DNA of 64,000 nucleotides, taken from Candidatus Peribacteria bacterium (GTDB lineage Bacteria; Patescibacteriota; Gracilibacteria; UBA1369; LOWO2-01-FULL-3). The notes beneath the pieces were generated by a model that ran no database searches, was not told the DNA's origin, and worked only from the letters and a program-made list of their open reading frames with translations. This document shows positions 12,008 through 54,920 of this stretch, piece after piece (the stretch's first letter is position 1; the number at the start of each line of letters is the position of its first letter). Location: the NCBI GenBank assembly GCA_943356465.1, contig CALREX010000003.1:46450-110449 (forward strand). The letters run 5' to 3'. The position numbers and the translations under genes were made by a program.

Positions 12008-13952
<1,945 letters not shown>

Positions 13953-13980
13953 AATTTATAGCAGTTATTTAAATTCAAAT

Positions 13981-14007: not shown

Positions 14008-14106
14008 AAAATCAAGTCAAGGATAAAAAGAACAAAAAAGCTAAAAATTGATGTAATGCAAGAAATCATGAAGTTGACGCAGCAGTACACAATTTTTAGC
14101 TTTTTT

Positions 14107-20680: not shown

Positions 20681-20768
20681 GAAATACTATTAAACTAAGA
20701 GTAAATTATACCATTTTAAGGTAAAATCGTCAATCTAAGCCCGATAAAACCACCATTCAATATACAGT

Positions 20769-22469: not shown

Positions 22470-22485
22470 AAAATTTATTAACACA

Positions 22486-28192: not shown

Positions 28193-29863
28193 CTAATACA
28201 CCTCCTTCAAATAACACTCTTCGCAATATACGATTTCCGGCCTCTGCTCGGTATAAACGCTCTTCATGTCTTTTCCGCATTTCATACAATTTCTATCAAA
28301 AAGTTTTCTTTGTGGACGTAGCGCAAGTCTCGCAAAATACCTGCAATCAGGACATTTTTTTGGAGCAGGAACTTTCATTTTTCGATAAAAATCGAGTTCG
28401 TGCTTCAAAATTTTATATCGTTTAGAACACTTTTCACACGTCAAAACTTTATCGCAAATATCATCACCTGTGTCGTTGATATTCTCAGGCACTTCAACCA
28501 AATTACCTGTAGTTGGCGCAGTAATCGCTTCTATTTCCTTCCATTTAAATCCACGTCTTAAAACCTCTTCCTTCGACAAAGGATAATACTCATTTGCCAC
28601 AGTTTCGTTGTAAGCATGTGGAGAAATAGTATGGGGAAAAAATTCACCCCACTCACCAGTTTTCCTCATATGCTCAATGATTTTAGGCACCAATGCCTCG
28701 TATTCTTCCTGCGGATATTGTTTATTAAAAATACAATATTTCTTATTTCTTAAACCAACACATCCAAAACAATTCTGTGATCCAAAACAAGATTCACAAT
28801 ATAAAAGATTATTAGAATTAAATACGTACAAACAAAAATTCACATTATAAGTCGTAATCGTACCAAGAACTTCATATGACAATTCCGGCTTCACATACAT
28901 GTTTGAACAATCCATCAAATCCTTGGTCTGCACACCGACTTGAACATATTTAGCATCTTCACTGTCAGAGACATCATAGCAATCTTCACAATTTTTAGAG
29001 TTCAACAAAAAATCTCCAGTACAATTTTCACAGTTTAAAACATTCGCATATTTATAAATTCTTTTTTTGCGCATTTCATCAAAATCCGCTATCACTTTTC
29101 GAAATTTCTCCGGCGAATTCAAAATGTCAGCAACCTTGTTTTCGTAGTCTGCTTGCGGAAATTTTTGATTTTCGAAATGATATTCTTTACCGACCAAATT
29201 CGTACACAAAAAACAATTTCTGCAATTTTTCAAATTATCACAAAACCAAGAATCGCTTGTATTCTGGGAATTATAAACATATCTACAGTTGTAACATTTC
29301 TCAACATTAAAACATTCGTAAATCAATTCACAGTCATACGCATACGAACAATCAACTGCATTTTTACACCTCTGAAGCAATTTCCCATACCAACAATCCT
29401 CGCAATATTCAGAGGAATTGATCAAATAACAATTTCTGCAATATCCTGTACCAGTAGTATAATCAGAGTTTTCATTATCCATCGCCATCATGCAGGCATG
29501 CGGAACATCAAGCTGAAGCATATGAAATTGCTCAAAAAATGGCTTACTAAAATCAAAATCACGACCATAATCCGTAGCGCTCCAGTCATCAGAAAACCAT
29601 TCCGCGATAGAAAAAACCCTATAATTCGACTCCGGAGAATAAACAGAAACCAAAGGTTTATTTGAAAGCGCCGAAGTGCGCCTATACAAATTATACTCAT
29701 TCCTATGCATAGTTCTCCTCATACACCGACAATCAGGACAAATAGTAGGGGCAGGAATATCAAAACGTTTTCCGCCAAAAATCGGTGAAACTTTTTCTAA
29801 AAATTTCAAATCCTTGTCAGTTATCTCAAATTTCAGACCACACTGTTTACAATTTTTTTCCAT
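28193..29863 (-). CDS. cysteine-rich multi-zinc-ribbon protein, paralog C
   Basis: ORF 28193..29914. The ATG at 29863 gives MEKNCKQCGLKFEI. Same architecture as A, with C-terminus ...CPDCRYF...RNCMKCGKDMKSVY...VYCEECYLKEVY. Confidence 0.85.
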   Translation of the reverse strand: MEKNCKQCGLKFEITDKDLKFLEKVSPIFGGKRFDIPAPTICPDCRCMRRTMHRNEYNLYRRTSALSNKPLVSVYSPESNYRVFSIAEWFSDDWSATDYGRDFDFSKPFFEQFHMLQLDVPHACMMAMDNENSDYTTGTGYCRNCYLINSSEYCEDCWYGKLLQRCKNAVDCSYAYDCELIYECFNVEKCYNCRYVYNSQNTSDSWFCDNLKNCRNCFLCTNLVGKEYHFENQKFPQADYENKVADILNSPEKFRKVIADFDEMRKKRIYKYANVLNCENCTGDFLLNSKNCEDCYDVSDSEDAKYVQVGVQTKDLMDCSNMYVKPELSYEVLGTITTYNVNFCLYVFNSNNLLYCESCFGSQNCFGCVGLRNKKYCIFNKQYPQEEYEALVPKIIEHMRKTGEWGEFFPHTISPHAYNETVANEYYPLSKEEVLRRGFKWKEIEAITAPTTGNLVEVPENINDTGDDICDKVLTCEKCSKRYKILKHELDFYRKMKVPAPKKCPDCRYFARLALRPQRKLFDRNCMKCGKDMKSVYTEQRPEIVYCEECYLKEVY

Positions 29864-29880
29864 ATAAAAATCATAACAAA

Positions 29881-31632
29881 CTAATACACTTCTTTCAAAT
29901 AACAATCCTCGCAATACACAATTTCCGGCCTACCTGGGGCATAAACACTCTTCACATCCTTGCCGCATTTCGCACATTTCCTATCACAAAGCCTGTAATA
30001 ATTATGAAATTTCAACCTGTCAAAATGCCTTTGATCAGGACAAATTCGTGGAATCGGCAGTTTCATTTTCTTATAAAATTTTAATTCCGAAGGAATAACT
30101 TTATAAGCCTTACCTGTCACTTCGCATTTCAAAATTTTCTCACAAATATCATCACCGACCTCTCGAATATCCGCAGGCGGCACGAAATAATCCCCTTCAC
30201 TCGCCATCTCGATCTTCTCATCGCGCCATGCACAACCAAGCTTAAGTGCTTGATCTTTACTCAATGGATAATATTCATGCGCAATCGTTTCATTATACGC
30301 AAAAGCAGAAACATCATACGGAAAAAATTCACCCCATTCTCGATTTTTAGGCTCGGTCTCGCTCGAACTGGCAAAGCCAGATTCTGCTTTAACCTGCGCG
30401 CTCGCGCCGTGCGCTCGCCCAATCCCCCCCATATGTTGAATAATCTTCGACACTAAAACTTCGTATTCCTCTTTTGAATATTGCTTATTAAAGACACAAT
30501 ATTTTTTATTTCTAAGCCCGACACAACCAAAAATATTATGACAATGATGACACTCCATCGAATAATATACATTACTCCCGTACCACGCATAAAAAAGCAT
30601 CATAGACATCTCCAAACCGACAGTCGAACACATACTATAACAAGATCTCACGCCATCAGGAGAACAAAAAGTTATATCACGGGAACCAAAGGAATTTGGC
30701 GTAAAATAGACATGATCACAATCCTCGGAATTTTTCGAATCAAAAGAATTCGTACAATTTTTACAATTATAAACACTTTCACCCGTACAATTTTCACTGC
30801 CAAAAATATGCGACGAAACATGTGGCAAAGTTTTCTTCAGCTCTTCCAATTTTCCACGCAACACCTCTATCTTTTCATTGGTCAAATATTCGTATTCTTT
30901 TTTTATTTCCGCATATTCTTCTTGAGAATACTGCTTATTAAACACACAAAATTCCTTTGCTCTAAGCCCGAAACATCCTATGCAATTTCTACACGACTGA
31001 CAATCTTCAATCATTATTGAGTCGCTGCAATTTCTACAATTCACAAAAAATTTACACGCATAACACATATCACTCGCAATCCCCTGATAACAAAGTTCGC
31101 CAGCATACAGAGTCAAATTATCCACACAGTCCTTGCTGAAAGAAACAAATTTTCCATACATACAATCTTCATTTTTTGCCGCACCAAACATCAAATAACA
31201 ATTTTTCTGTTCCAAAGCATAGTTTGTATAATAACTGTTTTCGCAATTTGTTGTATAAAGCGACATATGCGGAACATCTCGGTACAAAGCCTTAAACTGC
31301 TCTGCAAAAGTTTTCGAAAAATCAAAATCTCGTCCATACTTCAATTCATCCCATTTGTCACTCCACCACGCTTCTTGATCATAAACCTTGAAAGCTTTAT
31401 CAGGAGAATATGTGGAAATAATTTGTTTATCAGTCAGATCACATTTTCTCGCATAAAGTTTACGTTCATTCCTAAAAGAAAGATGCCTCTGATGCTTACA
31501 ATCATGACAAAAATCTGAAACAGGAATAGAAAATTTCCTACCATCAAAAACAGGAGAAATTTTTTCCAAAAACTTCAAATCCTCATCTGTCACTTCAAAC
31601 TTTTCACCACACTGTTTACACATTTTTTCCAT
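29881..31632 (-). CDS. cysteine-rich multi-zinc-ribbon protein, paralog D
   Basis: ORF 29881..31638 starts at a TTG; the ATG at 31632 gives MEKMCKQCGEKFEV. Same architecture, and it carries the GC-rich GRAHGAS... insertion. Confidence 0.85.
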   Translation of the reverse strand: MEKMCKQCGEKFEVTDEDLKFLEKISPVFDGRKFSIPVSDFCHDCKHQRHLSFRNERKLYARKCDLTDKQIISTYSPDKAFKVYDQEAWWSDKWDELKYGRDFDFSKTFAEQFKALYRDVPHMSLYTTNCENSYYTNYALEQKNCYLMFGAAKNEDCMYGKFVSFSKDCVDNLTLYAGELCYQGIASDMCYACKFFVNCRNCSDSIMIEDCQSCRNCIGCFGLRAKEFCVFNKQYSQEEYAEIKKEYEYLTNEKIEVLRGKLEELKKTLPHVSSHIFGSENCTGESVYNCKNCTNSFDSKNSEDCDHVYFTPNSFGSRDITFCSPDGVRSCYSMCSTVGLEMSMMLFYAWYGSNVYYSMECHHCHNIFGCVGLRNKKYCVFNKQYSKEEYEVLVSKIIQHMGGIGRAHGASAQVKAESGFASSSETEPKNREWGEFFPYDVSAFAYNETIAHEYYPLSKDQALKLGCAWRDEKIEMASEGDYFVPPADIREVGDDICEKILKCEVTGKAYKVIPSELKFYKKMKLPIPRICPDQRHFDRLKFHNYYRLCDRKCAKCGKDVKSVYAPGRPEIVYCEDCYLKEVY

Positions 31633-31643
31633 AATCAATAAAA

Positions 31644-35060: not shown

Positions 35061-35411
35061 TTAGAAACTATTTCTGTCTCCTGAGTCTCTCCTTCTAAAA
35101 CCTCCACCTCCGAATCCACCTCCTCCGAAACCTCCACCACCTGTTCTTCTTGGTGGTCGATCTTCCATTGGACGAGCTTCGTTAACAACGAGCTTTCTTC
35201 CTTCCATCTCATTGCCATTCCACATTTCGATAGCTTTTTGAGCTTCTTCTTCTGTGGACATTTCGACGAATCCAAAACCTTTGGATCTGCCTGAAAATTT
35301 GTCAGCGATTACAGCTGCTGATTCAACAGTTCCTGCCTGCGCAAATGCAGTGCGAAGAGATTCTTCTGTTGCTGTGTAAGGTAGATTCCCTACGTATAAT
35401 TTCTTTCCCAT
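35061..35411 (-). CDS. RRM-type RNA-binding protein with Gly-rich tail
   Basis: The ATG at 35411 gives MGKKLYVGNLPY (RNP-2) and KGFGFVEM (RNP-1), with a C-terminal GGGGFGGGGFGGGGFRRR. Confidence 0.9.
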   Translation of the reverse strand: MGKKLYVGNLPYTATEESLRTAFAQAGTVESAAVIADKFSGRSKGFGFVEMSTEEEAQKAIEMWNGNEMEGRKLVVNEARPMEDRPPRRTGGGGFGGGGFGGGGFRRRDSGDRNSF

Positions 35412-35521
35412 AACGGTGATTAAAAAATAACAAAAGGATTTTGCTCTCAACCAAAGCAGAAGTCAATAGAAGATTTGACAAACACGACAATTGTGAACGA
35501 AATAAATCCTCTAAGACTAGT

Positions 35522-35937: not shown

Positions 35938-36858
35938 TTATATTTTCTTCGGAAATATCACAGACAGAATAAGAGAAACAGATAATGCAAACAAGATTAC
36001 CAAAAGAGAAGTTACGGAAGAAATATGAATATCAATAATACCGGCAAGCATTTTAAGTCCTATAAAAATAAGAATAAAAGACAACCCTTTTTGCAAATGA
36101 TGAAATTTATGCAGAATATTTTCAATCAAGAAAAACATAGCCCTAAGCCCCATGACAGCAAAAATATTTGAAGTAAAAACAATAAAAGGGCTTTGAGAAA
36201 TAGAAAAAGTAGCCGGAATAGAATCAACAGCAAAAATTATATCGGTAGTTTCAACAAGAATCATAATCATAAAAAGAAGAGTGAAATACTTCTTACCATT
36301 TTCTTTCGCAATAAATTGTCCATTGTGAGGACTCGGAGTAAATCGCAAAAATCTTCTGGCAAGTCTAACAATTTTGCTGTTTTCAAAATCGGCATGTTCC
36401 TCCTTCTTATCGGCAAAAAGTTTAATTCCGGTATAAACAAGTAAAATTCCAAAAACATACAAAACCCAATAAAACTGATGAATTATTACAGAACCGGCAG
36501 TAATAAAAATTCCTCTAAAAACAACTGCGCCCAAAATCCCCCAAAACAAAACTTTATGATGATATTTTTCATCAAGACTGAAAAAACTGAATATCAACAT
36601 AATGACAAAAAGATTATCCATCGACAACATTTCTTCTGTTAAATAAGCACTCACAAATTGAGCAAACATTTCATGCCCTATAAAAATAAAAATCAAAGAC
36701 GAAAAACCAAGAGAAATCAAAACCCAAAAAACAGTTTGAACAAGAGCTGACTTAGGTCCTATCTTATGAGGATTTCTGTTGAAATATCCCAGGTCCACTA
36801 CCAAAAACACAACCATTATAGCGACAAAAACAATCCATAAATAATTTTGTGCAGTCAT
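35938..36858 (-). CDS. TerC family integral membrane protein
   Basis: 306 aa. SMDNLFVIMLIF and ETTDIIFAVDSIPA are TerC hallmarks. Confidence 0.88.
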   Translation of the reverse strand: MTAQNYLWIVFVAIMVVFLVVDLGYFNRNPHKIGPKSALVQTVFWVLISLGFSSLIFIFIGHEMFAQFVSAYLTEEMLSMDNLFVIMLIFSFFSLDEKYHHKVLFWGILGAVVFRGIFITAGSVIIHQFYWVLYVFGILLVYTGIKLFADKKEEHADFENSKIVRLARRFLRFTPSPHNGQFIAKENGKKYFTLLFMIMILVETTDIIFAVDSIPATFSISQSPFIVFTSNIFAVMGLRAMFFLIENILHKFHHLQKGLSFILIFIGLKMLAGIIDIHISSVTSLLVILFALSVSLILSVIFPKKI

Positions 36859-36991
36859 ATTATTTCGACTCTAAAGGAAAAAATTTTTTTCTGCAAATAA
36901 AACACAAAAATAAATTACATTTTTACTTAAAAAACTCTTGTATTTTTTTTAAATAAGACCTATGTTTTTCATAAATATATAACAACCACAA

Positions 36992-39394
36992 ATGCCACCA
37001 AACAAAGACTTACTTGGCAAAAATATTATCTTCATAAATTCAGGAGGAAAAAAGAAAAAATTCACACTTGAAAAAGCAAAAAGCCTAGGGTTAAACATCA
37101 TTTTGGTTAATCAAAAACTGGACACAAACAAAAAACTCATCGACCACTTCATCGAAGCAGACACTTACAACCATAAAGAAGTAATCGATAAATTAAAATT
37201 ATTTCAAAAAAACAATCCAGAAATAAAATTCGACGGAGCAATAACATTCTGGGAAGACGATATTCCACTTTTAGCAAGAGTATGTGAAGAATTTAAACTC
37301 TCCGGAAACAGCTACGAAACTTCAATAAGGACAAGAAATAAATACGAAATGAGAAAACGTCTTGCCGAAACAAACCTCGGAAATCCACTTTTTCATATGG
37401 TAAAAAATAAAAACGATTTAAAAAAAGCCATAGAGCAAATAGGATTTCCTGCAGTAATGAAGCCTGCATGGGGAGCAGACAGTGAATTTGTAATATTGGT
37501 AAAAAACGAAGAAGAGGCAAAAAGCACTTTGGATTATTTGCAAAAAAACTGTAATGAAAAATTCAATCCGATTTTCAAATATAACAATGGAACTTTTTTG
37601 TTTGAAGAATATATGGATGGAATGGAAATAAGTTTGGAATGTTTTTCTCAATATGGAATCCCGCATGTCATAGGAATAAATGAAAAACAACCTATAAAAC
37701 CTCCTTACTTTGTGGAATACGGAGATATCGCTCCGGCAAGGTTAGACGACGAAGTCGAAATGGAAGCAATAAAATTGGCGGAATCAGCTTTGATAGCTTT
37801 AGGAGTACAAAACAGCCTTGCACATATAGAAGTAAAAATAACTTCAACAGGTACAAAAATTGTAGAGGTCGGATCGAGAATGGGTGGAGATGATATATAC
37901 ACAAACGTGAAAAATGTTTGGGACACAGACATGGTGGAAATAGGAATAAGAATAGCCTGCGGCCTAAACACAAATTATAAAAACACTCCGTCAAAAGGAT
38001 GCGTAATATGCCGTTATTTCATTCCAAATCATTCAGGAATAATAACAAATATTGAAGGAGTAAAAGAAGCACAACAAATAAAAAATGTTCTTCAATTAAT
38101 CATAACAAAAGATGTTGGAGATGCAATTTTAGTACCACCTGAAGGATTCGAAAATGCAGGATGGGCTGTAGTAAAAGGGCGAACATATCAGGAAGCGGAA
38201 ACACTGATGAACAGAGTAACAAGCAAAATCGAGATAAATGTAACTCGTTTCCACAAAGATTCATCACTTGGAAAAACAATAAGACAATCCCCTCTTTCAT
38301 CAGCATCAATTGTCCGCGAACAAATCATAAAAGCTTCAAAAATAGAAAAACTCAGAATAGTGGATAAGAATAAAATCAAAAAATTACACATTGGAATCGT
38401 TGCAAATTCTCTGATTCCTATATACAGCGAAAATTCAAAGAAATTTTTCACAGGAGAAGATATTAAAAATATATTAGAAGCAAAAGGCTACAATGTAACT
38501 TTATTTGATGTAGGAGAATCAACATTGCCAATCGAAAAAATTCAAAGAGCAAATCTCGATTTCGTAATGAATCTCTGCGAAGCAATTTACGATTCACCAT
38601 TGCTAAAATCACACTCTGCAGCATTATTCGACATGCTACAATTGCCTTACACAGGGTCAAATCCTGGAACACTATCACTCTCTTTGGATAAAATAAAAGT
38701 AAAAAAAATCCTTGAATATCACGATATTCCGACACCGGCATGGGATTATGTTGAAAGTATGGACGACGAAATAAGCGACGAACTTGAGTATCCACTAATT
38801 GTAAAACCGGCAAACTCCGACAACTTTTTCGGAATAAACAATCAATCAGTTGTAACTAATGAAAAAGACCTAAAAAAACAACTACGCACAATAATAGAAG
38901 GATTCAAACGACCTGCACTGATAGAGGAATATATTGAAGGAACAGAAATAGATGTTTCGCTCATCGGAAATGAAGAAGAAGTGGAAGTTTTACCGCTTAT
39001 ACGTTCAACTTTTGATAAAACGCCAAGAGACCATTGGCATATATATTCATCAGACCTTTGGGATGACAAAAATAAACATATTTTAGACACAATAAAAGTC
39101 GAAAAACCTGCAAAAATAAACAAAAAACTTGAGACATTAATAAGCGAAATGGCACTGGACGTTTACAATATTTTCGACTGCCACGATTACGGAAAAATAG
39201 AGTTCAGAGTAGATAAAGAAGGGAATCCATACGTAATAGAATTAAATCCAAATCCACCGATAGAAAGAGATAATTTCATTGCCATATCGGCAAAACTCGC
39301 CGGATACAGCTATGAAGATTTGATAGAAAAAATACTTTGGCTCGCTATACAAAGATACAAAGACAAACCACCGTTCTATCATCTACAATTCTAA
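36992..39394 (+). CDS. fusion of two ATP-grasp ligase modules (L-amino-acid-ligase-like N-half, D-Ala-D-Ala-ligase-like C-half)
   Basis: 800 aa. N-half: FPAVMKPAWGADSEFVILV, FEEYMDGMEISLECF, KIVEVGSRMGGD. C-half: LHIGIVAN...ALFDMLQLPYTGSNP, YPLIVKPANSDNFFGI, LIEEYIEGTEIDVSLIG, PYVIELNPNP. Confidence 0.85.
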   Translation: MPPNKDLLGKNIIFINSGGKKKKFTLEKAKSLGLNIILVNQKLDTNKKLIDHFIEADTYNHKEVIDKLKLFQKNNPEIKFDGAITFWEDDIPLLARVCEEFKLSGNSYETSIRTRNKYEMRKRLAETNLGNPLFHMVKNKNDLKKAIEQIGFPAVMKPAWGADSEFVILVKNEEEAKSTLDYLQKNCNEKFNPIFKYNNGTFLFEEYMDGMEISLECFSQYGIPHVIGINEKQPIKPPYFVEYGDIAPARLDDEVEMEAIKLAESALIALGVQNSLAHIEVKITSTGTKIVEVGSRMGGDDIYTNVKNVWDTDMVEIGIRIACGLNTNYKNTPSKGCVICRYFIPNHSGIITNIEGVKEAQQIKNVLQLIITKDVGDAILVPPEGFENAGWAVVKGRTYQEAETLMNRVTSKIEINVTRFHKDSSLGKTIRQSPLSSASIVREQIIKASKIEKLRIVDKNKIKKLHIGIVANSLIPIYSENSKKFFTGEDIKNILEAKGYNVTLFDVGESTLPIEKIQRANLDFVMNLCEAIYDSPLLKSHSAALFDMLQLPYTGSNPGTLSLSLDKIKVKKILEYHDIPTPAWDYVESMDDEISDELEYPLIVKPANSDNFFGINNQSVVTNEKDLKKQLRTIIEGFKRPALIEEYIEGTEIDVSLIGNEEEVEVLPLIRSTFDKTPRDHWHIYSSDLWDDKNKHILDTIKVEKPAKINKKLETLISEMALDVYNIFDCHDYGKIEFRVDKEGNPYVIELNPNPPIERDNFIAISAKLAGYSYEDLIEKILWLAIQRYKDKPPFYHLQF

Positions 39395-40683
39395 TGGGGA
39401 AAAATATTCTGATAGTTACAGGCTCGGATTACAGCGATATAGTATATCAAGCCTTTTATGACACAAAAAAACTTGGACATAAACTATATCTTTTGAGCGA
39501 CGGATCTTTTGAACCACGACCTGAAGTTTTCGAAAAACATTTTATATACGACCTTAGAAAGACAAAAGAAAGCTTAGAGTACATGAAAAATCAAAATGAG
39601 AAATTTGACGCAGTAACAATAAAAACTTCAGAATGGCTCACTCCGTTAGTCGCACTTTTGGCTAAACAATACGGATGTATAGGCAATGAACCAATTGTGG
39701 CATTCAACTGTCGGAGTAAATATCACATGCGACAATGTTTGGAGCGCGGAGGTGTTCCGATACCAAAATTTAAACTTTGCAAAAATTACGAAGAACTGAT
39801 TAATGGCATAAGAGAGATAAAAACTCCATGTGTGGCAAAACCGGTTGGAGGAAATGCAAGCTATGGAACCTTCATGATAAGAGACGAAAAGGACATTGAG
39901 TCACTAAAAGAAAATTATGAAAACTCAATAAAATTCCTTAAAGAAAAAGCAATCGACAGTGATGTTTTTGCCTTTGATAAAGAGGAAATGGACCTCATCG
40001 GCGTAGACGGCCATGTCGACATGATAACAGATTATCTTGTCGAAGAATTTATGGATGGACATGAAATAAGCGTAGACGCATTAGTTCAAAATGGAGAAGT
40101 TAACATCATAGGAACAGAAGACCAAGTCAGGATGGAACCACCCTATTTCGTACAACTGGCAGCCAGATTACCATACGTATGTTCAGCAAACGAACAAGCC
40201 CAAATATCAGATTTGATAAAACTCACTATCAAGGCAATGAACATTAAAAATTCAGCAACACACACAGAAATAATGTTCACATCACAAGGGCCGAAAATAG
40301 TAGAAATAGGATGCCGTATCGGCGGCGACAATCTTCACGATGACATTCTAAACCTCACAGGATACAACCTAATGTTTGAATCAATAATGATAGCGCTAGG
40401 AGAAAAAAGGCATTACGAAGTCAAAAACAAAGGACACAAAGTTTTAAAATACATACTTCCTGAAAAGAAAGGAAGAATTAAAAAGATACACATTCCGGAT
40501 GAAATAAAGTACGATAGTAATAATTTCAATATTGAAATTTTATCAAGCGTTGATGACTTTGTCGCATTGCCTCCGGAAAAATTCGACTACATCGGATATA
40601 TTTCCGGCAGAGGAGAAACAGCGGAAGAAGCGGAAAAAAACACAAATGAAGCCTTAAAAAAAATAGAAATCATAATAGAATAA
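39394..40683 (+). CDS. ATP-grasp ligase (L-amino-acid-ligase-like)
   Basis: The ATG at 39394 overlaps the upstream TAA (TAATG). MGKNILIVTGS..., TPCVAKPVGGNASYGTFMI, LVEEFMDGHEISVDAL, KIVEIGCRIGGD. It is a paralog of the N-half of the 800-aa protein. Confidence 0.85.
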   Translation: MGKNILIVTGSDYSDIVYQAFYDTKKLGHKLYLLSDGSFEPRPEVFEKHFIYDLRKTKESLEYMKNQNEKFDAVTIKTSEWLTPLVALLAKQYGCIGNEPIVAFNCRSKYHMRQCLERGGVPIPKFKLCKNYEELINGIREIKTPCVAKPVGGNASYGTFMIRDEKDIESLKENYENSIKFLKEKAIDSDVFAFDKEEMDLIGVDGHVDMITDYLVEEFMDGHEISVDALVQNGEVNIIGTEDQVRMEPPYFVQLAARLPYVCSANEQAQISDLIKLTIKAMNIKNSATHTEIMFTSQGPKIVEIGCRIGGDNLHDDILNLTGYNLMFESIMIALGEKRHYEVKNKGHKVLKYILPEKKGRIKKIHIPDEIKYDSNNFNIEILSSVDDFVALPPEKFDYIGYISGRGETAEEAEKNTNEALKKIEIIIE

Positions 40684-40685
40684 AA

Positions 40686-41984
40686 ATGAATATAGTATCA
40701 ACCCAAAGCTATGAAATCTTATTCTCAAACAACAGAGATAAGTATTATTTCATAATACTAAAAAACAATCCTGGGCGAGATTTTTTTCTAGCAAATATTT
40801 CAAAAGATAAAATAATAGATATAGAAGCAAAAGAAAGTTCACTTTCGGAAACAGAACTGATAAAAAGATCTGGATTCTTAAAAAAATTAAAAGAAAAAAA
40901 GATAGAGGCATACTACCTAAACAGCCTTTCCTCAAGCCCTTTAGACAAATGGGCAAAGAAAAATAAAATAAAATTATTATCTCCCACTTGGGCTCTTCAA
41001 AAAAAACTCGAAGATAAAATATTTTTCGACAAACTTTTGAAAAAAAATAAAGTTTCGTCCCCATTTAGCGTAATTCCAAAAAAAGAAAAAGATATAGAAT
41101 CAATCACAAAATTCCCGGGAGTTGTACAAGTGCCATATAGCCATGGATCGCAAGGAACATTCTTGGTAAAAGATAAAAAAGAAATATTTGAATTATTGAA
41201 AAACAAGAAAATGAAATTTCCATTTTTATATCGCGAATTTATAAAAGGACTACCTGTTGGAGTCACTCTTCTTCTAAGCAAGAAAGAGATGATTTTCTCT
41301 AGCATAAGAGGACAAGCAATCATGCTGGACAGCAAAAACACAAACAAATATCTTGGAATTCAGTGGATGAAAACTTCAGAATTTAAAAAAGAAGGAATAA
41401 AAAATCTCAATAAAACACTTATATCAATGGGGAAAGTTTTACAAAAATTAAAACTTTACGGAACAGCTAGTATAGACCTAATAATAAGAGATAATGATGT
41501 TTTTGTAATCGAATGCAATCCAAGACTTTCACTATCAAGCATCCAAATGTCCCAGAGAAAAGAGCTAATACATGGATACGATTTTAATGAAGAGTTCATA
41601 AAAGGCCTGTTTGGACATAAACTTTCAGCAAATAAACCATTTGTTCCAAACACAACTTACGAAGGATGCACTTTGGATTTGGACTTTTTCGAAAACAAAT
41701 TAAGCGGTAAAAAAACAAAAAGAGTTCACAAAATAGGAATGTACAAAATAAAAAATGGAACTTTACAATATCTGTCCGACAAAATGAAAGATTTTAAAAA
41801 CAAAGATATAATTTTTGTAGACCACAAACTTGAAAAAAACGTAGTACTAAGCCCAAAAGACGACTACGGAATGGTGATTTCACACCACCCTGTCGTAAAG
41901 ATAGAACATGGAACTTTCTCTATCAAAGACAAGAATAAAATCTTGGCAGGAATAGAAAAATTACTTCTTTCAAACACTAAATAG
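40686..41984 (+). CDS. divergent ATP-grasp-like protein
   Basis: 432 aa, starting 2 nt after the preceding stop. FPGVVQVPYSHGSQGTFLVKDKKE, LYREFIKGLPVGVTLL, ASIDLIIRDNDVFVIECNPRLS. Confidence 0.65.
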   Translation: MNIVSTQSYEILFSNNRDKYYFIILKNNPGRDFFLANISKDKIIDIEAKESSLSETELIKRSGFLKKLKEKKIEAYYLNSLSSSPLDKWAKKNKIKLLSPTWALQKKLEDKIFFDKLLKKNKVSSPFSVIPKKEKDIESITKFPGVVQVPYSHGSQGTFLVKDKKEIFELLKNKKMKFPFLYREFIKGLPVGVTLLLSKKEMIFSSIRGQAIMLDSKNTNKYLGIQWMKTSEFKKEGIKNLNKTLISMGKVLQKLKLYGTASIDLIIRDNDVFVIECNPRLSLSSIQMSQRKELIHGYDFNEEFIKGLFGHKLSANKPFVPNTTYEGCTLDLDFFENKLSGKKTKRVHKIGMYKIKNGTLQYLSDKMKDFKNKDIIFVDHKLEKNVVLSPKDDYGMVISHHPVVKIEHGTFSIKDKNKILAGIEKLLLSNTK

Positions 41985-42888
41985 TAAGAACAAACTGCGG
42001 AATTGTTTTAAACAATTTTTCTTTATAGGACCCTTCTTCACTTTCTGCAAAATCAATCAATTTTAGACCTAAAGAAAGAGCATCTTGCATATCAAGCAAT
42101 GTAAGATAATGCCCTATTCCGGGACATTTGATCGTATCGTTTCCACACAACATAGTGTAATAAACATCTCCACAAATAAAATTCAGATCAACCCCAACGA
42201 TTTCACCATTAACCTTCACGGAAATCATTCTGCTTTTATATTTTCCACCATTTTTTCCATTTTCGATGATACGGTTAAAGGTCTTGATAATGCGCTCATC
42301 CTTGAACGGAGAATCAGAAAACTTATCTGAGTTAAATCTCATCAGTGCATTTAAATCTTCAAAATGATCGAAAAGAATTTCAGGATTTAATTCATCAACT
42401 CTTTTTTTATCTCTCCTCAAATTTTGTCGAAGTTTCGTGTTTATAGTCATAAAGAAATCATCAACAGAATTAATACCATCGAGATTTAAAACTTGTTTTG
42501 GATCAGACTTCAAAAGCCTATCATCCCCTACTAAAAAATCACACGCACTTTCCTTCAAACTATTTAAAACAGTCGATTTCGGACAAGCATCAATCAAAGA
42601 TTTTAAATATTTTTTGTCTTTTATCCAAAAAGAATTTTCTTCCTGCCAATTAAATCCGTCACCAATATCTCCAAACCAAAAATATTTATTTTTATCACTA
42701 ATATACCAAAGAGGCAGCAAACCAACATTTCGATTTTCGTCCTGCAGAAGAACAAAATGGAAGTCATACTTAAAAAATTCAAAAAAAGAAAAACGAAAAT
42801 CCCATTCATCAAAAATCGACAAATGTGGAGAAAATTCTTCCCATAATTTTTTACACTCATCTCTATTTTCAACAAAAATTGCATTCAT
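41977..42888 (-). CDS. FemAB-like / GNAT-fold (Acetyltransf_6, CelD/BioF2-like) transferase candidate
   Basis: 303 aa. Size and C-terminal pattern (...ISVKVNGEIVGVDLNF...GIGHYLTLLDMQDALSLGLKLIDFAESEEGSYKEKLF) resemble that family. The assignment is from memory only. Confidence 0.5.
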   Translation of the reverse strand: MNAIFVENRDECKKLWEEFSPHLSIFDEWDFRFSFFEFFKYDFHFVLLQDENRNVGLLPLWYISDKNKYFWFGDIGDGFNWQEENSFWIKDKKYLKSLIDACPKSTVLNSLKESACDFLVGDDRLLKSDPKQVLNLDGINSVDDFFMTINTKLRQNLRRDKKRVDELNPEILFDHFEDLNALMRFNSDKFSDSPFKDERIIKTFNRIIENGKNGGKYKSRMISVKVNGEIVGVDLNFICGDVYYTMLCGNDTIKCPGIGHYLTLLDMQDALSLGLKLIDFAESEEGSYKEKLFKTIPQFVLTI

Positions 42889-42934
42889 AATTCACATGCA
42901 TTATAGTATTGATATACCCCAATAGAAATCAAAA

Positions 42935-44239
42935 ATGAAAATATCACGTGGAAAAATCAACACAAAACCTTCAAAAAAAACTGACAATCAATTTCACTCA
43001 AGATTTCAAAAAGTTAAAATTTTACGTCCACGATTTCTCGAAATAGGAAAAAAGATAGGTACTCCACTTTATCTCTACGACAAAGAAGAAGTACAAAAAA
43101 ACGTACAAACTTTCAAAAACGCATTTAAAAAAGAAGGACTAAATATAAACATTTTTTTTGCAACAAAAAGCAACTACTATCCTGGAATCCTTAGAACAGT
43201 GGTACAAGAAAAAGAAGGGCTGGACGTCTCAAGTGAGCGAGAACTAAAACTCGCAATAGAAGCAAAAGCGGAAAAAATAGTCTATACAGGACCTGGAAAA
43301 ACAGAAAAAGATTTTGAGTTAATTTTAAAATATCACAAAAAAATCACAGTAAATTTAGAAAGCATACGTGAACTAAAATTACTTGCAGAAATGGCAGAAA
43401 ACAAAAAAGCAACCATGAGATGCGGAGTAAGAATATACACAAAAATGCAGACAGGATGGACAAAATTTGGCATTCCATTAGAAAACCTAAAAACATTTTT
43501 CCATGAAGCAAGAAAACACAAATCAATAAATTTTTGCGGAATTCATTTTCACATCAGTTACAACAAGAACCCTGAGAAATATGTAAAAACATTCAAAATA
43601 TTATCAGAATATTTGAAAGAAAATTTCACAGAAAACGAACGAAAACAATTTCAGTACATAGATATGGGAGGTGGCTTTTATCCGCAGCCATTTGAGGGAA
43701 CTCATCCATGGAATAGAGAGGAGGACAGCATGGAAGTTCCGGATGAAAAAACATTAATATCAACAAAACCGGGAAAAAGATATATACCGATAAAAGTGGA
43801 CCCGATAGAAAAATTCGCTAAAGAAATCTCAAAAATTTACAAAAAAGAAATTCTCCCAATTCTTCCAAATATTTCACTTTATGCAGAACCGGGCCGATAT
43901 ATTTGCCACAGCGCAATGCACATGATTTTCAAAATAATCGACATAAAAAATCCACACCTCGGCATAACAGATGGCAGCAACAACATGATTGGATGGGAAA
44001 GATATCAGTTTTTTCACTATGTTCCATTATTCAACCTCTCACAATTCGATCAAAAAAACGAAATTCCATTCATTACTTATGGCTCACTCTGCACACCTGA
44101 CGACGTTTGGGGATATTACATTTACACAAAAAAGACACCAAAAGAAGGAGATATCCTTGTAATGCCATTTCAAGGAGCATACACATACACATTCGCCCAA
44201 AACTTCATCAAAGAAATTCCACCTGTTTACGATTTATAA
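42935..44239 (+). CDS. fold-type-III PLP-dependent decarboxylase (Orn/DAP/Arg decarboxylase family)
   Basis: 434 aa. PLP-lysine motif FFATKSNYY, IDMGGGF, YAEPGRY, YGSLCTPDD. Confidence 0.85.
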   Translation: MKISRGKINTKPSKKTDNQFHSRFQKVKILRPRFLEIGKKIGTPLYLYDKEEVQKNVQTFKNAFKKEGLNINIFFATKSNYYPGILRTVVQEKEGLDVSSERELKLAIEAKAEKIVYTGPGKTEKDFELILKYHKKITVNLESIRELKLLAEMAENKKATMRCGVRIYTKMQTGWTKFGIPLENLKTFFHEARKHKSINFCGIHFHISYNKNPEKYVKTFKILSEYLKENFTENERKQFQYIDMGGGFYPQPFEGTHPWNREEDSMEVPDEKTLISTKPGKRYIPIKVDPIEKFAKEISKIYKKEILPILPNISLYAEPGRYICHSAMHMIFKIIDIKNPHLGITDGSNNMIGWERYQFFHYVPLFNLSQFDQKNEIPFITYGSLCTPDDVWGYYIYTKKTPKEGDILVMPFQGAYTYTFAQNFIKEIPPVYDL

Positions 44240-44248
44240 AAAAATCGA

Positions 44249-44908
44249 ATGCACACCTCAATCCGTAATTTCATACTCAGAATAACCAGATGCTTCACAA
44301 GCTATAATTTGCTCTATCACATAGCCGCAGCAATATTTACATACATCTGCGTAACATCAGGTTTTGACTGGTTCTACTTCAACGCAACACGATCACCAGA
44401 ATTACAATTTTTCATGTTTCCAGCAGTAATAATAGGCAGCATCGGAACATTGATGATCCTAGTAATTCTACTTCTTATCGGAATAATCAAAAAAAATCAT
44501 AAAATTCTTAAAACAGCTTTTGCGCTAATCGAAGCCGTTTTAATTTCAATAATAATTATAACAATCTATAAAGCCTTAACAGGAAGAGCACACCCCCCTT
44601 ATATATTGGATATGTTTATAAAAAGAACAGACATAAGCCATATTTTTAACTTCGGATTGATAAAAAATAGCGTATTCTATGGATGGCCATCAGGACACAC
44701 AGCCGCATCATTTGCATTTGCAACAACAATTTACAAACTCTACCCTAAGAACAAAATCAAATATCTAGCACTATTTTATGCCTTCTATGTAGGCATCGGA
44801 GTATCAACAAACATTCACTGGTTCTCAGATTTTCTAGCAGGTTCACTTGTAGGAACCGCAATAGGTACAACAGTAGCAAAAGATTTCACTAAACAAATAA
44901 AATCATAA
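44249..44908 (+). CDS. PAP2-family phosphatase (membrane)
   Basis: 219 aa, polytopic. [38 protein letters not shown]. Confidence 0.85.
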
Positions 44909-44912
44909 AATT

Positions 44913-45278
44913 ATGGAACTAAATAAACTCACACCGGAAGAAGAAAACGTAATCATAAGAAAAGGCACAGAAGCTCCATTTTCAGGCGAATACAATAGTT
45001 TTAGAGGAAAAGGCACATATGTTTGTAGGCAATGCAACACACCTCTCTACAGATCAGAAGATAAATTTGATTCGGGCTGCGGATGGCCAAGTTTTGATCA
45101 GGAAATAAAAGGAGCAGTAACAAAAATTCCCGACAGAGACGGCATGAGAACCGAAATCACATGTGCAAATTGCGGAGGACACTTAGGCCATGTATTTACA
45201 GGCGAACATCTGACACCAAAAGACACACGCTTCTGCGTAAATTCTATTTCACTAAAATTCATAAAAGATGACAAATAA
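44913..45278 (+). CDS. msrB: peptide-methionine (R)-S-oxide reductase MsrB
   Basis: 121 aa. [32 protein letters not shown]. Confidence 0.95.
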
Positions 45279-45753
45279 AGCGATTTTTGCCGCAGGATGT
45301 TTTTGGGGAGTCCAATTTTATTTCAGCAAAGAAAAAGGCGTTATTTCAAGCCAAGTTGGATACATCGGCGGACATACCGAAAATCCAACATATGAAGAAG
45401 TTTGCTCACATAAAACAGGCCACATAGAAGCTATAGAGGTAACATTTGATACAGAAAAAATAACTTATAAAGATTTAGTAAAACTATTTTTCGAAATACA
45501 TGATTTTACTCAAACAGACGGGCAAGGAAATGACATCGGCGAACAATATTTATCAAAAATTTTTTATTTAGACGAAGAACAAAAACAAACAGCAGAAAAA
45601 ATAATAAAAGAATTAGAATCAAAAGGTTACAAAGTAGCGACAACAATTGAAAAAGCAGACACATTCTATAAAGCAGAAGAATATCATCAAAATTACTACG
45701 ACAAAACAGGCGGCGAACCATATTGTCACATCAGAAAAAAAATCTTCGATTAA
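45268..45753 (+). CDS. msrA: peptide-methionine (S)-S-oxide reductase MsrA
   Basis: 161 aa. [36 protein letters not shown]. Confidence 0.95.
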
Positions 45754-47431
45754 TTTTCTATCACAGTTCTTACAAGCCTAGTGCCCTTTGTAGAACTTTC
45801 AATTCTAAATGGAGAAATACTTGAGTGAATCTTCAAAAATCCACTGACACTAGCACAATATGATCCTTCTGTAGAAAATTGTAATTGTATAACAGAACTT
45901 TCAGCAAAAATACTTTTTCTAGAAATTGATTTACCTTCATGACGAAGAAGATATTCAATAGTCGCACGCTGCCAAGGTTTTGCTTCAGAGAAATTTTCAT
46001 CAAGCCATTTTTGCGCAACTTCATCCAGTTTAGTCTCACCACTTGCATCATTCGCACCATCATGATCATTTGCACCACTCGCGACTTCTGCATCTTTATC
46101 CTTTGCATTGTCATTCGTGCCACTCGCGACTTCCCCACTTTTATCTACTACATGGTCACTCGTGTCAACTGCACTACCTAAATCAGCAACCACCTTATCA
46201 CCAATTTCATCATCATGAACTAAAGTGGTCAATCCTTCCTTCTCTAATTCTTTGGCAACGTTCCACTCAAGCACACTTATAATATGTCTGGTTATACCAA
46301 TTCGACTATCATTTGGATTAGTAGCTTCTTGAATCTTCAAAATTGCCCTACGATGTTCCAAAGCTTCAGCATATCTATGGATAAAATCAAAAAATTTAGA
46401 TATATCAATATGTAAACGTATTAATGCACCGGCTACATTTCTGGAAATATTATCAAGAGCAAGCAATCTACCACGAACAGCAATAAGATCATCAATAGAA
46501 CGTCTCTCCACAGCACTTCTTGCAGAATCAAAAACAGCACCAAAAGACGTACTGTCGTCTAAGACAGCTTTATCTTTAGGCTTAGAATCGTTTTTCTTAT
46601 CATCAGATGCAATCCTAGTTCTTATCCTTTGCAAAAAAGTTTCATGATCATGGATATGTGGACGACTATTTGCAGCAAATTCCATCTGTATCGATAAAGA
46701 TTTTTCAGCATGTTTCAGGGCAATTTCAGGCCTATTGTTGTGAAGAAGAATATTGGCAATTTTAGTATTTGCACGAATCAAATCAATCCAATTGCTACGA
46801 GCCGCCTCCGCAAGTAAAACATGTTGTCCAAAAGCCGTGATAGCTTCCTCATTTCTTTCAAAAAATGCCCTCTCCATAAGACTTGCAGCCATTTCGAAAC
46901 TCAAGTTTTCAACCTGTTCAATATAATGCTCAAGAGAATTCGGATTTGGAACAAATCTTCTAGAACTAGCTGGTGCTGGTGCTGGCACAGGTTCCGGTTC
47001 TCGATGAGAAAGCTCTATATCAGCATTCCCACCATCAACTGGCTCAACAACTCTCACAACAGGAGCTTGAGAAGGAAGAGCAACCTGAGAAATTACACCG
47101 GAATTTCGCATTGAAGCCGAAATAATCACTTCAACAGACGAACCAAGCCCCGCCCCAATCGCAGCAAAAGCATGAGCATCACCAGCCATCGCCACAGCTG
47201 TAGCAATACATTTTCGTCCAACAGCCTGACAAATTCTAAGCACATTCTCTTCATTAATTTCCAAAGAGTCCACTCCGGCCCGCGACATCAAATCAGAGAT
47301 AGCCTCTCTGACAAATTTACGCAAATCTTTCAAAAATCCATCATCAACCTCAAATGGAAGTCTCTCCATAACAACAGGCAAAAATTGATCAGTATGCGCC
47401 TCCACCACTTCAGCTAAATCAAATTGTGACA
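45750..47431 (-). CDS. large hypothetical protein (orphan)
   Basis: ORF 45750..47552 starts at a TTG and would overlap the divergent gene. The ATG at 47431 gives MSQFDLAEVVEAH... There is no signal peptide or TM segment. Composition is atypical (APAPAPASS; EVASG(T/A)ND repeats). Confidence 0.65.
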
Positions 47432-47534
47432 TCTCTATAAAATTAAATTTGGGAGGAACTTTACAGCACAAAAAACGACCAGTCAAATCAAGCAACATTG
47501 ACAAAATTACAAAATTGAGACAAAATAGCGTTCT

Positions 47535-48341
47535 ATGCAAAAATTTGATCAATATTCAGATTATATAGCCGAACAAACAAGTTCACTTTTCGGCGTACCT
47601 AAGACAGAAGCTGACAAACAAAAGTTGGCTGCATATTTAGATCACATGCCAAGAAACATGTTAAGAACAGCGTCAGACGCAGTCGATTTAGTCAAATTCA
47701 TTACAATAACAAGACAAGAACACTTATTGCCACGCAAAAAAAATGTAAACAACGCCAGAAAAAGAAGAATAATGGATCATGAGAATGCGTGGTACTACTT
47801 ATTAGACAAAGAAGATATCTCAAAAGACAATGATGACCTTCCAGGAATAATCAGAGATATTCGCGATGATGCAGAAAAAACAACTGAAAAAGATGAAAAA
47901 AGACAACTCGTCCGCCTCGCAAGAAGAATAGAAGAAACTATTGTCGAAGACGATTTCAGGGAGAGTTTTGAGCTCCTTCAAGCGGCAAAACAAATTGATG
48001 TAGAACGCGGAAAAGTAAATATACTGACACATCAAGATATTCAACGTATTTGCGAAATGATGGAAGAGGGAAATAATCTCGCAAAAACGATAAGCGACCA
48101 TGATCGCCAAATCATTCATTCACTTTTGATAGATCAGCGCCAACTCGCGATTTTAGCTTGTGTATATAGAAAATGGACTCCCGCACAACTTCACGAAAAA
48201 TTAAAAAAACTGGAAGTTAAATTAGTATCATGGGGAATAATAGGACAAACACACGCTAGAACAGAGGCTGTATTCGCTAATGGATTGATGAATCTCGATA
48301 AAAGAGGTAATATCCCATTCGACTTTAATAAGATACAATAA
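47535..48341 (+). CDS. hypothetical protein (orphan)
   Basis: 268 aa, charged and helical-looking, with no recognisable motif. It is divergent from the 560-aa orphan. Confidence 0.65.
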   Translation: MQKFDQYSDYIAEQTSSLFGVPKTEADKQKLAAYLDHMPRNMLRTASDAVDLVKFITITRQEHLLPRKKNVNNARKRRIMDHENAWYYLLDKEDISKDNDDLPGIIRDIRDDAEKTTEKDEKRQLVRLARRIEETIVEDDFRESFELLQAAKQIDVERGKVNILTHQDIQRICEMMEEGNNLAKTISDHDRQIIHSLLIDQRQLAILACVYRKWTPAQLHEKLKKLEVKLVSWGIIGQTHARTEAVFANGLMNLDKRGNIPFDFNKIQ

Positions 48342-53837: not shown

Positions 53838-54920
53838 CTACTCAGGTATTATTTCTTGTGGATAATAATAAACAGCGATTTCTTTTGAGCCTACAAGCTT
53901 TCCTTTGTTGTAAAATTTCACAAGATATTCTTGATCGTAATATCCGGTATAAACTTCGAAATTAGAATAAAGCCCACCATTACAAGCCTTCACAACAGGT
54001 TGACTCAAAGCAGAATCTGCTATATGCCATTGACCATCAAGAAAGCCCTTATAATAAAGCTCCATCTCAATAGAATCCGAAGTAGAACCAAATTCATTTA
54101 TATTTGCAGAAACATACAAAATTTTCCAACCAGGATATTGTTTTACACCATCTTTCTCAACTACAAGATCTGAAGCCTTCTCAGGATTTTGGCATGCACT
54201 TGTCGTCACATCTGAAACAGAGATATCGCCAACGATATCATAAGGCTTTAGCGCATCTTTCTTTTTATAATTTTCATAATACCCTTTCGCCGCAGCAGCA
54301 TCCTTATTTTTCACGTAATCACTCGTAAAATCCCATTCTGAAATACAAGTGTCATCATATTTGCTGCCAGAATAAACTTCCTGAACTTCTAAAGTGATTT
54401 TTTTGAAAGTTTTCTCTCCTCCGAAATCAACAAACTGCATTCCATATTTATCTTCCAAAGTTACAAGATTTCCCTTCACATCATCAAAATACATTTGCAT
54501 GCCATGAACTCTATTATTTTGTTTAAAAATCGCTTCATCACGAGCAAAACCGCCAACGATACCAAAACCGGAAGCTTTCACAGGAGTGCTGAAAACATAA
54601 CTTATCTTGCCATTAAGACCTTTTTCAGAACACCAAGCAGTCGAGAAGTCACGATCAGCAACCATTTCTCCTTCATAATTAAAACCAATTCCAGTGTTGT
54701 CCACCAAAACAGAACTCGTCTCCACTTGATAATTTTTAACCTCAGCAATAGGCTTTGGCGCCTCTTCTTTGGCCTCTGCACGTTTAGGAACTTCAGATTT
54801 TGAAACATTTTTCTCATCACCTTTTTTATCCTCAGAAGAATTCGTGGAAAAAGAAAAACTACAAGCACTCAAAAGCATCGGCACAATCAATGCTAAAACA
54901 AAGAATCTAAGTTTGAACAT
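53838..54920 (-). CDS. lipoprotein with discoidin-like (NADase-type glycan-binding-like) domain
   Basis: 360 aa. Signal and lipobox FVLALIVPMLLSACS. The DRDFSTAWCSE...ISYVF...ITLEVQEVYSGSKYDDTCISEW pattern is typical of that beta-sandwich family. Confidence 0.7.
   Translation of the reverse strand: MFKLRFFVLALIVPMLLSACSFSFSTNSSEDKKGDEKNVSKSEVPKRAEAKEEAPKPIAEVKNYQVETSSVLVDNTGIGFNYEGEMVADRDFSTAWCSEKGLNGKISYVFSTPVKASGFGIVGGFARDEAIFKQNNRVHGMQMYFDDVKGNLVTLEDKYGMQFVDFGGEKTFKKITLEVQEVYSGSKYDDTCISEWDFTSDYVKNKDAAAAKGYYENYKKKDALKPYDIVGDISVSDVTTSACQNPEKASDLVVEKDGVKQYPGWKILYVSANINEFGSTSDSIEMELYYKGFLDGQWHIADSALSQPVVKACNGGLYSNFEVYTGYYDQEYLVKFYNKGKLVGSKEIAVYYYPQEIIPE

Follow-up and report, generated by a model that had tools for sequence, protein, structure and literature searches.

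Gene content of the locus

A compact cluster of biosynthetic genes was analysed in a DNA stretch of 64,000 nt (hereafter the window) from Candidatus Peribacteria bacterium (assembly GCA_943356465.1, contig CALREX010000003.1, positions 46,450-110,449 of the forward strand). The cluster starts with gene A (36992-39394, + strand, 800 aa), which encodes a fusion of an L-amino-acid ligase (LAL) with a Ddl-like module and is considered here as the hub ligase. It is followed on the same strand by gene B (39394-40683, 429 aa), coding for a stand-alone LAL-type ATP-grasp protein, and by gene C (40686-41984, 432 aa), coding for a three-domain ATP-grasp protein. Gene D (41977-42888, 303 aa) lies on the minus strand and encodes a FemX-like tandem GNAT protein. 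Two further genes are again on the plus strand, namely gene E (42935-44239, 434 aa) for a fold-type-III pyridoxal phosphate (PLP) decarboxylase and gene F (44249-44908, 219 aa) for a PAP2 membrane phosphatase (Pfam PAP2 at 2.1e-17).

The genes are tightly packed. A and B share the single A of TAATG, C begins 2 nt after B, and C and D converge with an overlap of 8 nt. The starts of D and E are 46 nt apart on opposite strands, and F begins 9 nt after E, giving spacings from A to F of -1, 2, -8, 46 and 9 nt. With intergenic gaps of at most 46 nt, the cassette A-E contains no small open reading frame (ORF) for a carrier or a substrate, and its proteins are of ordinary size and predicted to be soluble. 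All ORFs of the window are intact with genetic code 11. An earlier reading of the DNA alone (the sequence-only reading) had described six ORFs with these overlaps and gaps; these were confirmed, and the same six genes are present in independent public gene calls on identical contigs. The peptide motifs it had quoted were all found in the translations, and its domain assignments for the six proteins were borne out by Pfam.

Window proteins were searched by tblastn against 20 genome loci, together with public gene calls. A metagenome scan with an alignment of A, its matches confirmed by tblastn, yielded at least 565 relatives; 80 loci were retrieved. For the analysis of neighbourhoods, ORFs were called and proteins clustered in 107 loci (designated by L numbers) plus the window, and dereplication at 95% A identity left 87 loci. 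The sequence-only reading had treated the six genes as one block. Conservation as a unit holds for A-E: the cassette A-B-C-D-E or A-B-C-E recurs in relatives with as little as 66% identity of A, and once more in the range of 43-45%. It does not hold for the PAP2 gene. Within the 87 loci, a PAP2 homologue adjoins the cluster in the window and in L002 and L028, but not at L001, at L003 or at any more distant locus. This distribution indicates that the functional unit consists of the five genes A-E (36992-44239) and that PAP2 is merely a local neighbour. Gene F is most likely outside the unit, and with it falls the sole direct argument for a lipid-linked acceptor. Upstream of A, the genes for TerC, a cupin, an RRM protein and a P-type ATPase are kept among close relatives only, which reflects synteny rather than function.

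The hub ligase A

The N-terminal half of A (about aa 1-450) carries the Pfam domains ATP-grasp_4 and LAL_C2. In a PDB search, its residues 11-414 matched residues 7-412 of the LAL BL00235 (3VOT) at 5e-35, and weaker matches were obtained with BacD and RizA. Both this half and protein B also match DdaF. The ATP lysine, the Mg glutamates and an R-x-G-G-D motif are invariant or nearly so in the two proteins, which are predicted from these features to be bona fide LAL-type enzymes.

The C-terminal half (about aa 470-800) contains Dala_Dala_lig_C (PF07478, residues 589-782, 2.7e-31), and its residues 477-789 matched the Ddl structure 3R23 at 1.4e-22. It stays under the cut-offs of the Ddl families, with 166 vs 243 bits for NF002378 and 131 vs 246 for TIGR01205. 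Across 87 dereplicated homologues of A, conservation reaches 97% or more at K157, E280, R296, K605, E737 and E750. An alignment of 37 sequences shows little or no variation at E292 and N752, and E645/E646 are also kept. The D-Ala site of E. coli DdlB, formed by the E15/S150/Y216 triad together with K215 and R255, is changed in the window protein. The sequence SDNFFG has Phe at the position of S150, the omega loop (SSDLWDDKN) has lost K215 and Y216, and the catalytic R255 is replaced by K735 in the motif GKIE. The description of this half as Ddl-like, made in the sequence-only reading, thus stands for the fold and the ATP and Mg ligands and fails for the residues of the D-Ala site.

Alignment of the 87 proteins split the A family in two. 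R-type proteins (69 loci) keep equivalents of E15 in the loop VExDL, of S150 in NSIG and of R255, and their omega loop retains the equivalent of K215/Y216 in the form (D/E)AK(Y/W/F), to be compared with YEAKY of DdlB. K-type proteins (16 loci, including the window) display SDNFFG, an omega loop without the Lys-Tyr pair and Lys at the position of R255. The proteins of L004 and L035 have Gln or Glu at this position and belong to neither type. A cassette of B, C and E accompanies the K-type in 13 of the 16 loci, whereas the R-type is solitary or found with D or SET genes in 63 of the 69. This association suggests that the lineage which gained the extra ligases and the decarboxylase also rebuilt its Ddl-derived site. 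Stand-alone relatives of the C-terminal half likewise score below the Ddl cut-offs and thus offer no functional anchor.

The additional ligases B and C

Protein B displays the same Pfam domains as the N-terminal half of A (ATP-grasp_4 and LAL_C2) and is a paralogue of it with about 28-30% identity by tblastn. The lysine of the KP motif, the Mg-binding glutamates and an R-x-G-x-D motif are conserved in 18 homologues, and related cassettes contain one to three copies of B.

Protein C belongs to Pfam ATP-grasp_3. Its AlphaFold2 (AF2) model (pLDDT 91.3) found biotin carboxylase (BC), PurK and PurD as best Foldseek matches (E about 1e-18), which are generic and give no clue to the substrate. From this model, C is a predicted three-domain ATP-grasp protein of BC/PurD/PurK-like architecture. 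Residues D264, E276, N278 and R280 are invariant and the Mg ligands intact; the position of the canonical nucleotide-binding 'KP' lysine is occupied by an invariant glutamine (Gln148). Weak similarity was seen to the tyramine-Glu ligase MfnD and to PylC. In the loci near A, C is usually followed by E. Together, A, B and C supply the four ATP-grasp modules of the window: a LAL-type pair, one module resembling BC/PurD, and the remodelled Ddl-like half of A.

The transferase D and the decarboxylase E

Protein D matches Pfam Acetyltransf_6 (PF13480) at 2.8e-9; Pfam FemAB was not matched, and searches of NCBIfam and of PDB sequences gave no significant match. The AF2 model (pLDDT 95.5) displays a tandem GNAT fold. 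FemX of Weissella was the best Foldseek match (E 4e-12, TM 0.64), followed by the peptide synthases Sbb17 and Sba18, which depend on aminoacyl-tRNA, and by MprF and FemA. These top-ranking structures are, without exception, transferases that use aminoacyl-tRNA, and the earlier call of a FemAB/GNAT-like protein agrees with the model and its top match. D is considered a putative aminoacyl-tRNA-dependent aminoacyl transferase with a FemX-like fold.

Protein E contains Orn_Arg_deC_N and Orn_DAP_Arg_deC (Pfam). The fold-type-III PLP site is complete, with K78, H206, D243-GGG, E318-PGR, C386, D390 and Y416 conserved in 16 homologues. The match to the NCBIfam model lysA (TIGR01048) is split over two stretches and reaches 147 bits vs a cut-off of 298. 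Structures of diaminopimelate decarboxylases (DAPDC) align to residues 38-248 only, i.e. to the N-terminal barrel, whereas BtrK aligns to residues 36-420. The substrate motif of E reads CTPDD, where LysA has CESGD. The score, the motif and the limited alignment argue that E is not LysA, and the protein is predicted to be a fold-type-III PLP decarboxylase of the DAPDC/BtrK/SbnH group.

Distribution and modular composition of the family

Gene A anchors a large family, present in at least 565 metagenomic loci of bacteria of the candidate phyla radiation (CPR) and of DPANN archaea. Hosts include Peregrinibacteria, Peribacteraceae and other Patescibacteria, as well as Woese-, Nano- and Micrarchaeota and Diapherotrites. 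A search of 1.84 billion representatives at 50% identity returned about a dozen clusters with full-length fused A, down to 33% identity, and also non-canonical proteins that stand alone and are related to one or the other half of A. In the searchable literature on ATP-grasp proteins in CPR (Peregrinibacteria included) and DPANN, on gene neighbourhoods combining ATP-grasp, FemAB and decarboxylase genes and on double-ATP-grasp LALs, nothing was found on the A family or on a fusion of LAL and Ddl. A few metagenome-assembled genomes (MAGs) bearing A carry the labels Elusimicrobia, Gammaproteobacteria or Nitrospirota, in some cases perhaps through a binning error. L006 (JBDRIE010000018.1, labelled Nitrospirota) carries a CPR-like cassette with 77% A identity to the window, and L012, L014 and L020 are labelled Gammaproteobacteria despite CPR-like A cassettes; for these four loci, the labels are probably binning errors.

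The composition of the cassette varies. The arrangement A-B-C-D-E, with D inverted, is found in L001-L003 and L028, and A-B-C-E in L006, L007 and L008 (66-77% A identity). Additional copies of B occur in L031 (A-B-B-C-E) and L026 (A-B-B-B-C-E). Shorter versions are A-B-D-E with D inverted (L064, 45% A identity), A-B-E on a Nanoarchaeota contig (L022), A-C-E (L077, L088 and L095) and A alone on a Micrarchaeota contig (L024). Genes A-E co-occur across distant genomes and in both prokaryotic domains, and the A-E block is only one of the forms taken by a much larger modular family built around A.

Among the 87 loci, the strongest and commonest partner of A is D, present in 31 and immediately downstream in 24 of them. 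C was found in 14 loci, B in 13 and E in 13, one of the latter archaeal. SET-domain proteins occur in 16 loci and X35, a family of 450-aa proteins without Pfam match, in eight. The SET genes follow A or A-D in several lineages (e.g. L079, L092, L102, L103, L107, L010 at 13480-14223, L038 and L040). An HU gene comes next in 14 loci (A-D-SET-HU), all of one lineage. The SET proteins may methylate either a protein or the product of the pathway. In 29 of the 76 loci with enough downstream context A is solitary, and a Pfam analysis of the neighbours of these solitary genes detected no recurrent partner; ComEC, MscS, SIS, a methyltransferase and an ice-binding protein were seen. In L017 (4589-6130, labelled Elusimicrobia), an MscS channel gene overlaps the start of A, which is the sole hint of an osmolyte role. 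Genes resembling those of type IV secretion systems (PrgI, TraC-like, VirB4/DUF87) are located a few kb upstream of A in L010, L011 and L021.

Sister cassettes with epimerase-like genes

Several cassettes carry further enzymes directly with A. The gene order is A-X35-enolase-DegT-D-E in L066 and A-FemX-like-X35-enolase-DegT-C-X35 in L091, where DegT denotes a gene for a DegT-like aminotransferase. In L097 it is A-X35-DegT-family gene-C-E, the DegT-family gene coding for 394 aa without Pfam match. L004, with an A protein 84% identical to that of the window, has A-X35-enolase in place of A-B. X35 proteins (e.g. L004:6174-7553, L021:13349-14701, L066:3400-4797) are 450-470 aa long and display an invariant FGKxS motif and conserved cysteines. 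Over nearly their full length, residues 135-450 align remotely with residues 133-443 of the ATP-dependent peptide epimerase MurL (NF041275) at 3e-10, with 39 bits vs a cut-off of 700, and a PDB search with sequence and profile gave no significant match. X35 may represent a new branch of MurL-like epimerases that partners ATP-grasp instead of Mur ligases. The best match of the enolase-superfamily protein is L-Ala-D/L-Glu epimerase (NF041118, 2e-55). Such epimerase-like genes suggest that the ligases yield small peptides, which have free C-termini and undergo epimerisation, and the genes support peptide chemistry on small molecules.

Genomic setting of the window

The loci nearest to the window (91-94% A identity) are MAGs labelled Candidatus Peregrinibacteria or Gracilibacteria, and the host, a groundwater bacterium with tiny cells, is a Candidatus Peregrinibacteria (CPR) bacterium. 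The window is ordinary chromosome, with genes for dnaA, RseP, RRF, PyrH, GroEL, RNase Y and an H+-pyrophosphatase, and further ones for an SLH-domain protein, a P-type ATPase, TerC, ABC-F and CNNM. A YceG/MltG gene (2037-3053) indicates that the host cell makes murein. Complete genomes of Peribacteria are reported to possess all peptidoglycan genes and very few genes for amino-acid biosynthesis (PMC4736985). Genes of the mur, ddl and dap groups were not found in the 64-kb window. An Rfam scan of the window identified three tRNAs and nothing else, and a scan of 36700-45400 for promoters and terminators gave the same counts as shuffled sequence.

The dnaA gene (4971-6410, minus strand) is accompanied by a tRNA (4707-4779), and its presence may point to a nearby replication origin. 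Over the whole window, the cumulative GC skew declines monotonically, and a turning point is absent. The regions 18461-24018 and 28193-31638 (minus strand) contain a TraG/TrwB-like coupling ATPase and then large ORFs without Pfam match (571, 510, 246, 573 and 585 aa). A 360-aa protein with a NADase_transloc (F5/8 type C-like translocation) domain (53838-54920, minus strand) may be a secreted effector-like protein.

Closer to the cassette, a glycine-rich RNA-binding protein with an RRM domain (35061-35450, minus strand) is 94-98% identical among relatives, vs 74-87% for neighbouring genes, and appears from these comparisons to be conserved to an unusual degree. A lead connecting TerC with 'ATPgrasp_Ter' was judged coincidental. 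Between the PAP2 and ABC-F genes (44913-48341), the window has msrB, msrA, a 600-aa ORF of higher G+C with a weak TPR match and a 268-aa ORF. In L002 and L028 the ABC-F gene comes almost directly after PAP2, and L002 retains a 32-aa MsrB remnant. This region is a variable insertion/deletion spot.

Proposed function and alternatives

The enzyme classes of A-E are clear, their active sites are conserved apart from two substitutions, and the genes are inherited together as a unit. It is proposed, with confidence a little above even, that A-E serve as a cassette which assembles a short peptide or peptidyl-amine in the cytoplasm, working without ribosome, non-ribosomal peptide synthetase or Mur ligases. 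The product possibly resembles a murein stem peptide. In a possible sequence of steps, the LAL modules (N-terminal half of A, and B) would condense free amino acids via acyl-phosphates. More amide bonds would be formed by C and the Ddl-derived module, and one of these bonds would attach a diamino or dicarboxylic residue. E would then decarboxylate this residue in its conjugated state in the manner of BtrK, SbnH or FslC, with a primary amine left or exposed, and D would aminoacylate a free amine from aminoacyl-tRNA following the logic of FemX and Sbb17.

A short non-ribosomal peptide or peptidyl-amine had already been suggested in the sequence-only reading, and it remains the best one because the domains hold, the unit is conserved, the genes are not ddl and lysA, and the catalytic residues are kept. 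The alternative offered then, a peptide decoration of a lipid-linked envelope precursor, has lost with PAP2 the one direct argument in its favour. That the cluster is more than ordinary ddl and lysA is supported by scores below the cut-offs, by different active-site motifs and by archaeal members. Catalytic residues for ATP and Mg binding, for the PLP site and elsewhere are conserved throughout the family, with Gln148 of C and K735 of A as deviations. Beyond these points, the analysis added a larger modular family, the FemX-like gene as the strongest partner of A, and epimerases in sister cassettes.

Several observations weigh against the proposed assembly of a peptide. C lacks the canonical ATP-binding lysine, and in the Ddl-like module the catalytic Arg is replaced by Lys; either or both may therefore work in another way or not as ligases. 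An exporter, a carrier protein and a resistance gene are absent from the window cassette. The high proportion of loci with solitary A raises the possibility that the two-step product of A is the end point and that the partners are tailoring enzymes. SET and HU genes after A-D in many loci hint at protein rather than small-molecule substrates. The order of the steps, which is pure inference, deserves much less confidence than the general reading as a peptide.

Among the alternatives, ordinary peptidoglycan metabolism, with the Ddl-like half as Ddl, E as LysA and PAP2 as undecaprenyl-pyrophosphate phosphatase, is scarcely credible. The best named NCBIfam matches are indeed Ddl and lysA, and the host makes murein, as expected from YceG/MltG and from the complete set of peptidoglycan genes in Peribacteria. 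Nevertheless, both scores are far under the curated cut-offs, S150, K215, Y216 and R255 of the D-Ala site are altered, and E has CTPDD instead of CESGD and aligns well to DAPDCs in its N-domain only. Moreover, the A family is present in DPANN archaea, the window contains no mur genes, and close relatives differ, L004 having a MurL-like and an enolase-type gene instead of B after A. Housekeeping murein synthesis is thus largely excluded. An amine-first pathway, where E makes a diamine from a free basic or diamino acid and the ATP-grasp proteins and D acylate the amines (as in MfnA/MfnD, PylC or glutathionylspermidine logic), is unlikely. It would agree with the weak similarity of C to MfnD and PylC and with the position of E, always the last gene beside C or B. 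A Spermine_synth gene is located immediately upstream of A in L021 with AdoMet_dc within 3 kb, and AdoMet_dc is also found in L010 and L011; these polyamine genes are restricted, however, to one lineage in which A has D and SET and no E. Furthermore, E is nearer to DAPDC, BtrK and SbnH, several of which act on conjugated substrates, than to ornithine and arginine decarboxylases or NspC, and the peptide epimerases of sister cassettes imply C-terminal carboxylates.

Other products were considered as well. Secretion of a 'Trojan-horse' antimetabolite peptide against hosts or competitors (of the bacilysin, tabtoxin, dapdiamide or rhizocticin type) is improbable. The resemblance of the N-terminal half of A and of B to LALs of such pathways (BacD and DdaF matches) speaks for it, as do the differences in cassette content between close strains and the ABC or MacAB-like exporters that adjoin certain loci, L088 and the L027 group among them. 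This exporter linkage is lineage-specific, though; the window cassette has neither warhead-forming enzymes nor resistance gene nor exporter, and the broad, often single conservation of A over two domains fits a physiological role. Protein tagging, in which the ATP-grasp proteins extend a protein terminus or modify a side chain with amino acids (similarly to RimK, TTL or LysX) and D acts like L/F-tRNA-protein transferase, appears about as improbable. SET lysine methyltransferases and HU beside A would agree with it, and FemX-fold enzymes include protein aminoacyl transferases. The LAL and Ddl-clade enzymes characterised so far, however, all act on small substrates. In addition, the MurL-like, enolase-type and DegT-like genes together with the DAPDC-like decarboxylase indicate small-molecule chemistry, the gaps of the window cassette are too short to hold an ORF for a carrier or a substrate, and the HU linkage stems from one lineage with fully conserved synteny.

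A more specific version of the peptide assembly proposed for A-E can be formulated, although it is quite unlikely: A-anchored cassettes could be a Mur-ligase-independent ATP-grasp route to a murein-stem-like peptide with D-amino acids. This idea comes from the nearest characterised relatives of the components, namely Ddl, DAP decarboxylase, FemX, MurL and L-Ala-D/L-Glu epimerase, and from the four ATP-grasp modules of the window, as many as a stem pentapeptide has amide bonds, with a FemX-type branch in addition. Two points count against it, namely a bias of annotation towards peptidoglycan enzymes and the occurrence of A in archaea that lack murein. If true, the route would be shared between CPR and DPANN by horizontal transfer, and in these ultra-small episymbionts the peptide could decorate the cell's own envelope, or interface with or mimic host walls.

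CPR and DPANN are defined by biosynthetic gaps, and the A cassette is a rare positive biosynthetic trait in these groups. Its cost would amount to up to four ATP, one aminoacyl-tRNA and one decarboxylation per small product. The cassette is evidently mobile, and its partner genes, swapped like modules, provide a natural experiment in the diversification of ATP-grasp assembly lines.

Comparison with known systems

With the pseudomurein peptide ligases and CPS-like ATP-grasp proteins of methanogens, the cassette would share the concept of building an envelope peptide by ATP-grasp enzymes. A, B and C match NF053643 and PRK12767 weakly (36-71 bits vs a cut-off of 500), pseudomurein Mur-type genes are absent and the organisms are different. 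The C-terminal half of A resembles Ddl and VanA in its fold, in Dala_Dala_lig_C and in the Mg ligands E737, E750 and N752. In contrast to Ddl, the window protein is K-type, fused to a LAL, below every Ddl cut-off and unlinked to mur genes. The alternative D-Glu route by MurD2/MurL and the L-Ala-D/L-Glu epimerases are known systems (PMC8788868, PMC5808125). Their counterparts in the sister cassettes are the MurL-like 450-aa and dipeptide-epimerase-like proteins encoded directly after A. Such genes are absent from the window cassette, and the ligases are of the ATP-grasp and not of the Mur type.

Decarboxylases of conjugated amino acids are represented by BtrK (butirosin), SbnH (staphyloferrin B) and FslC (rhizoferrin). 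Like them, E is a fold-type-III PLP protein of the DAPDC-like group and sits among amide-forming ligases, although its similarity to BtrK is low (about 59 bits). The butirosin pathway (BtrI/J/K) needs BtrI, whereas the cassette has no acyl carrier protein; siderophore synthetases of the NRPS-independent type are also absent. D has the tandem-GNAT fold of FemX from Weissella viridescens and of Sbb17/Sba18 (Foldseek E 4e-12 to 2e-8, TM 0.63-0.64), and its putative pathway can present a free amine. It differs from FemX by an identity of about 11%, by belonging to Acetyltransf_6 instead of FemAB and by the lack of UDP-MurNAc or lipid II machinery nearby.

The closest parallel to the N-terminal half of A and to B is given by the LALs BL00235, YwfE/BacD and RizA, with which they share ATP-grasp_4 and LAL_C2, the ATP and Mg residues and the Arg-Gly-Gly-Asp motif. 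Unlike known LALs, that of A is fused to a Ddl-like module, and unlike known LAL pathways, the A cassettes contain up to three further LALs, a BC-like ATP-grasp protein, a FemX-like transferase and a decarboxylase. Known LAL pathways belong to Bacillus, Pseudomonas and actinomycetes, whereas the A cassettes belong to CPR and DPANN. Peptide assembly by ATP-grasp enzymes was already known, and the hub-and-cassette system around A is a new form of it.

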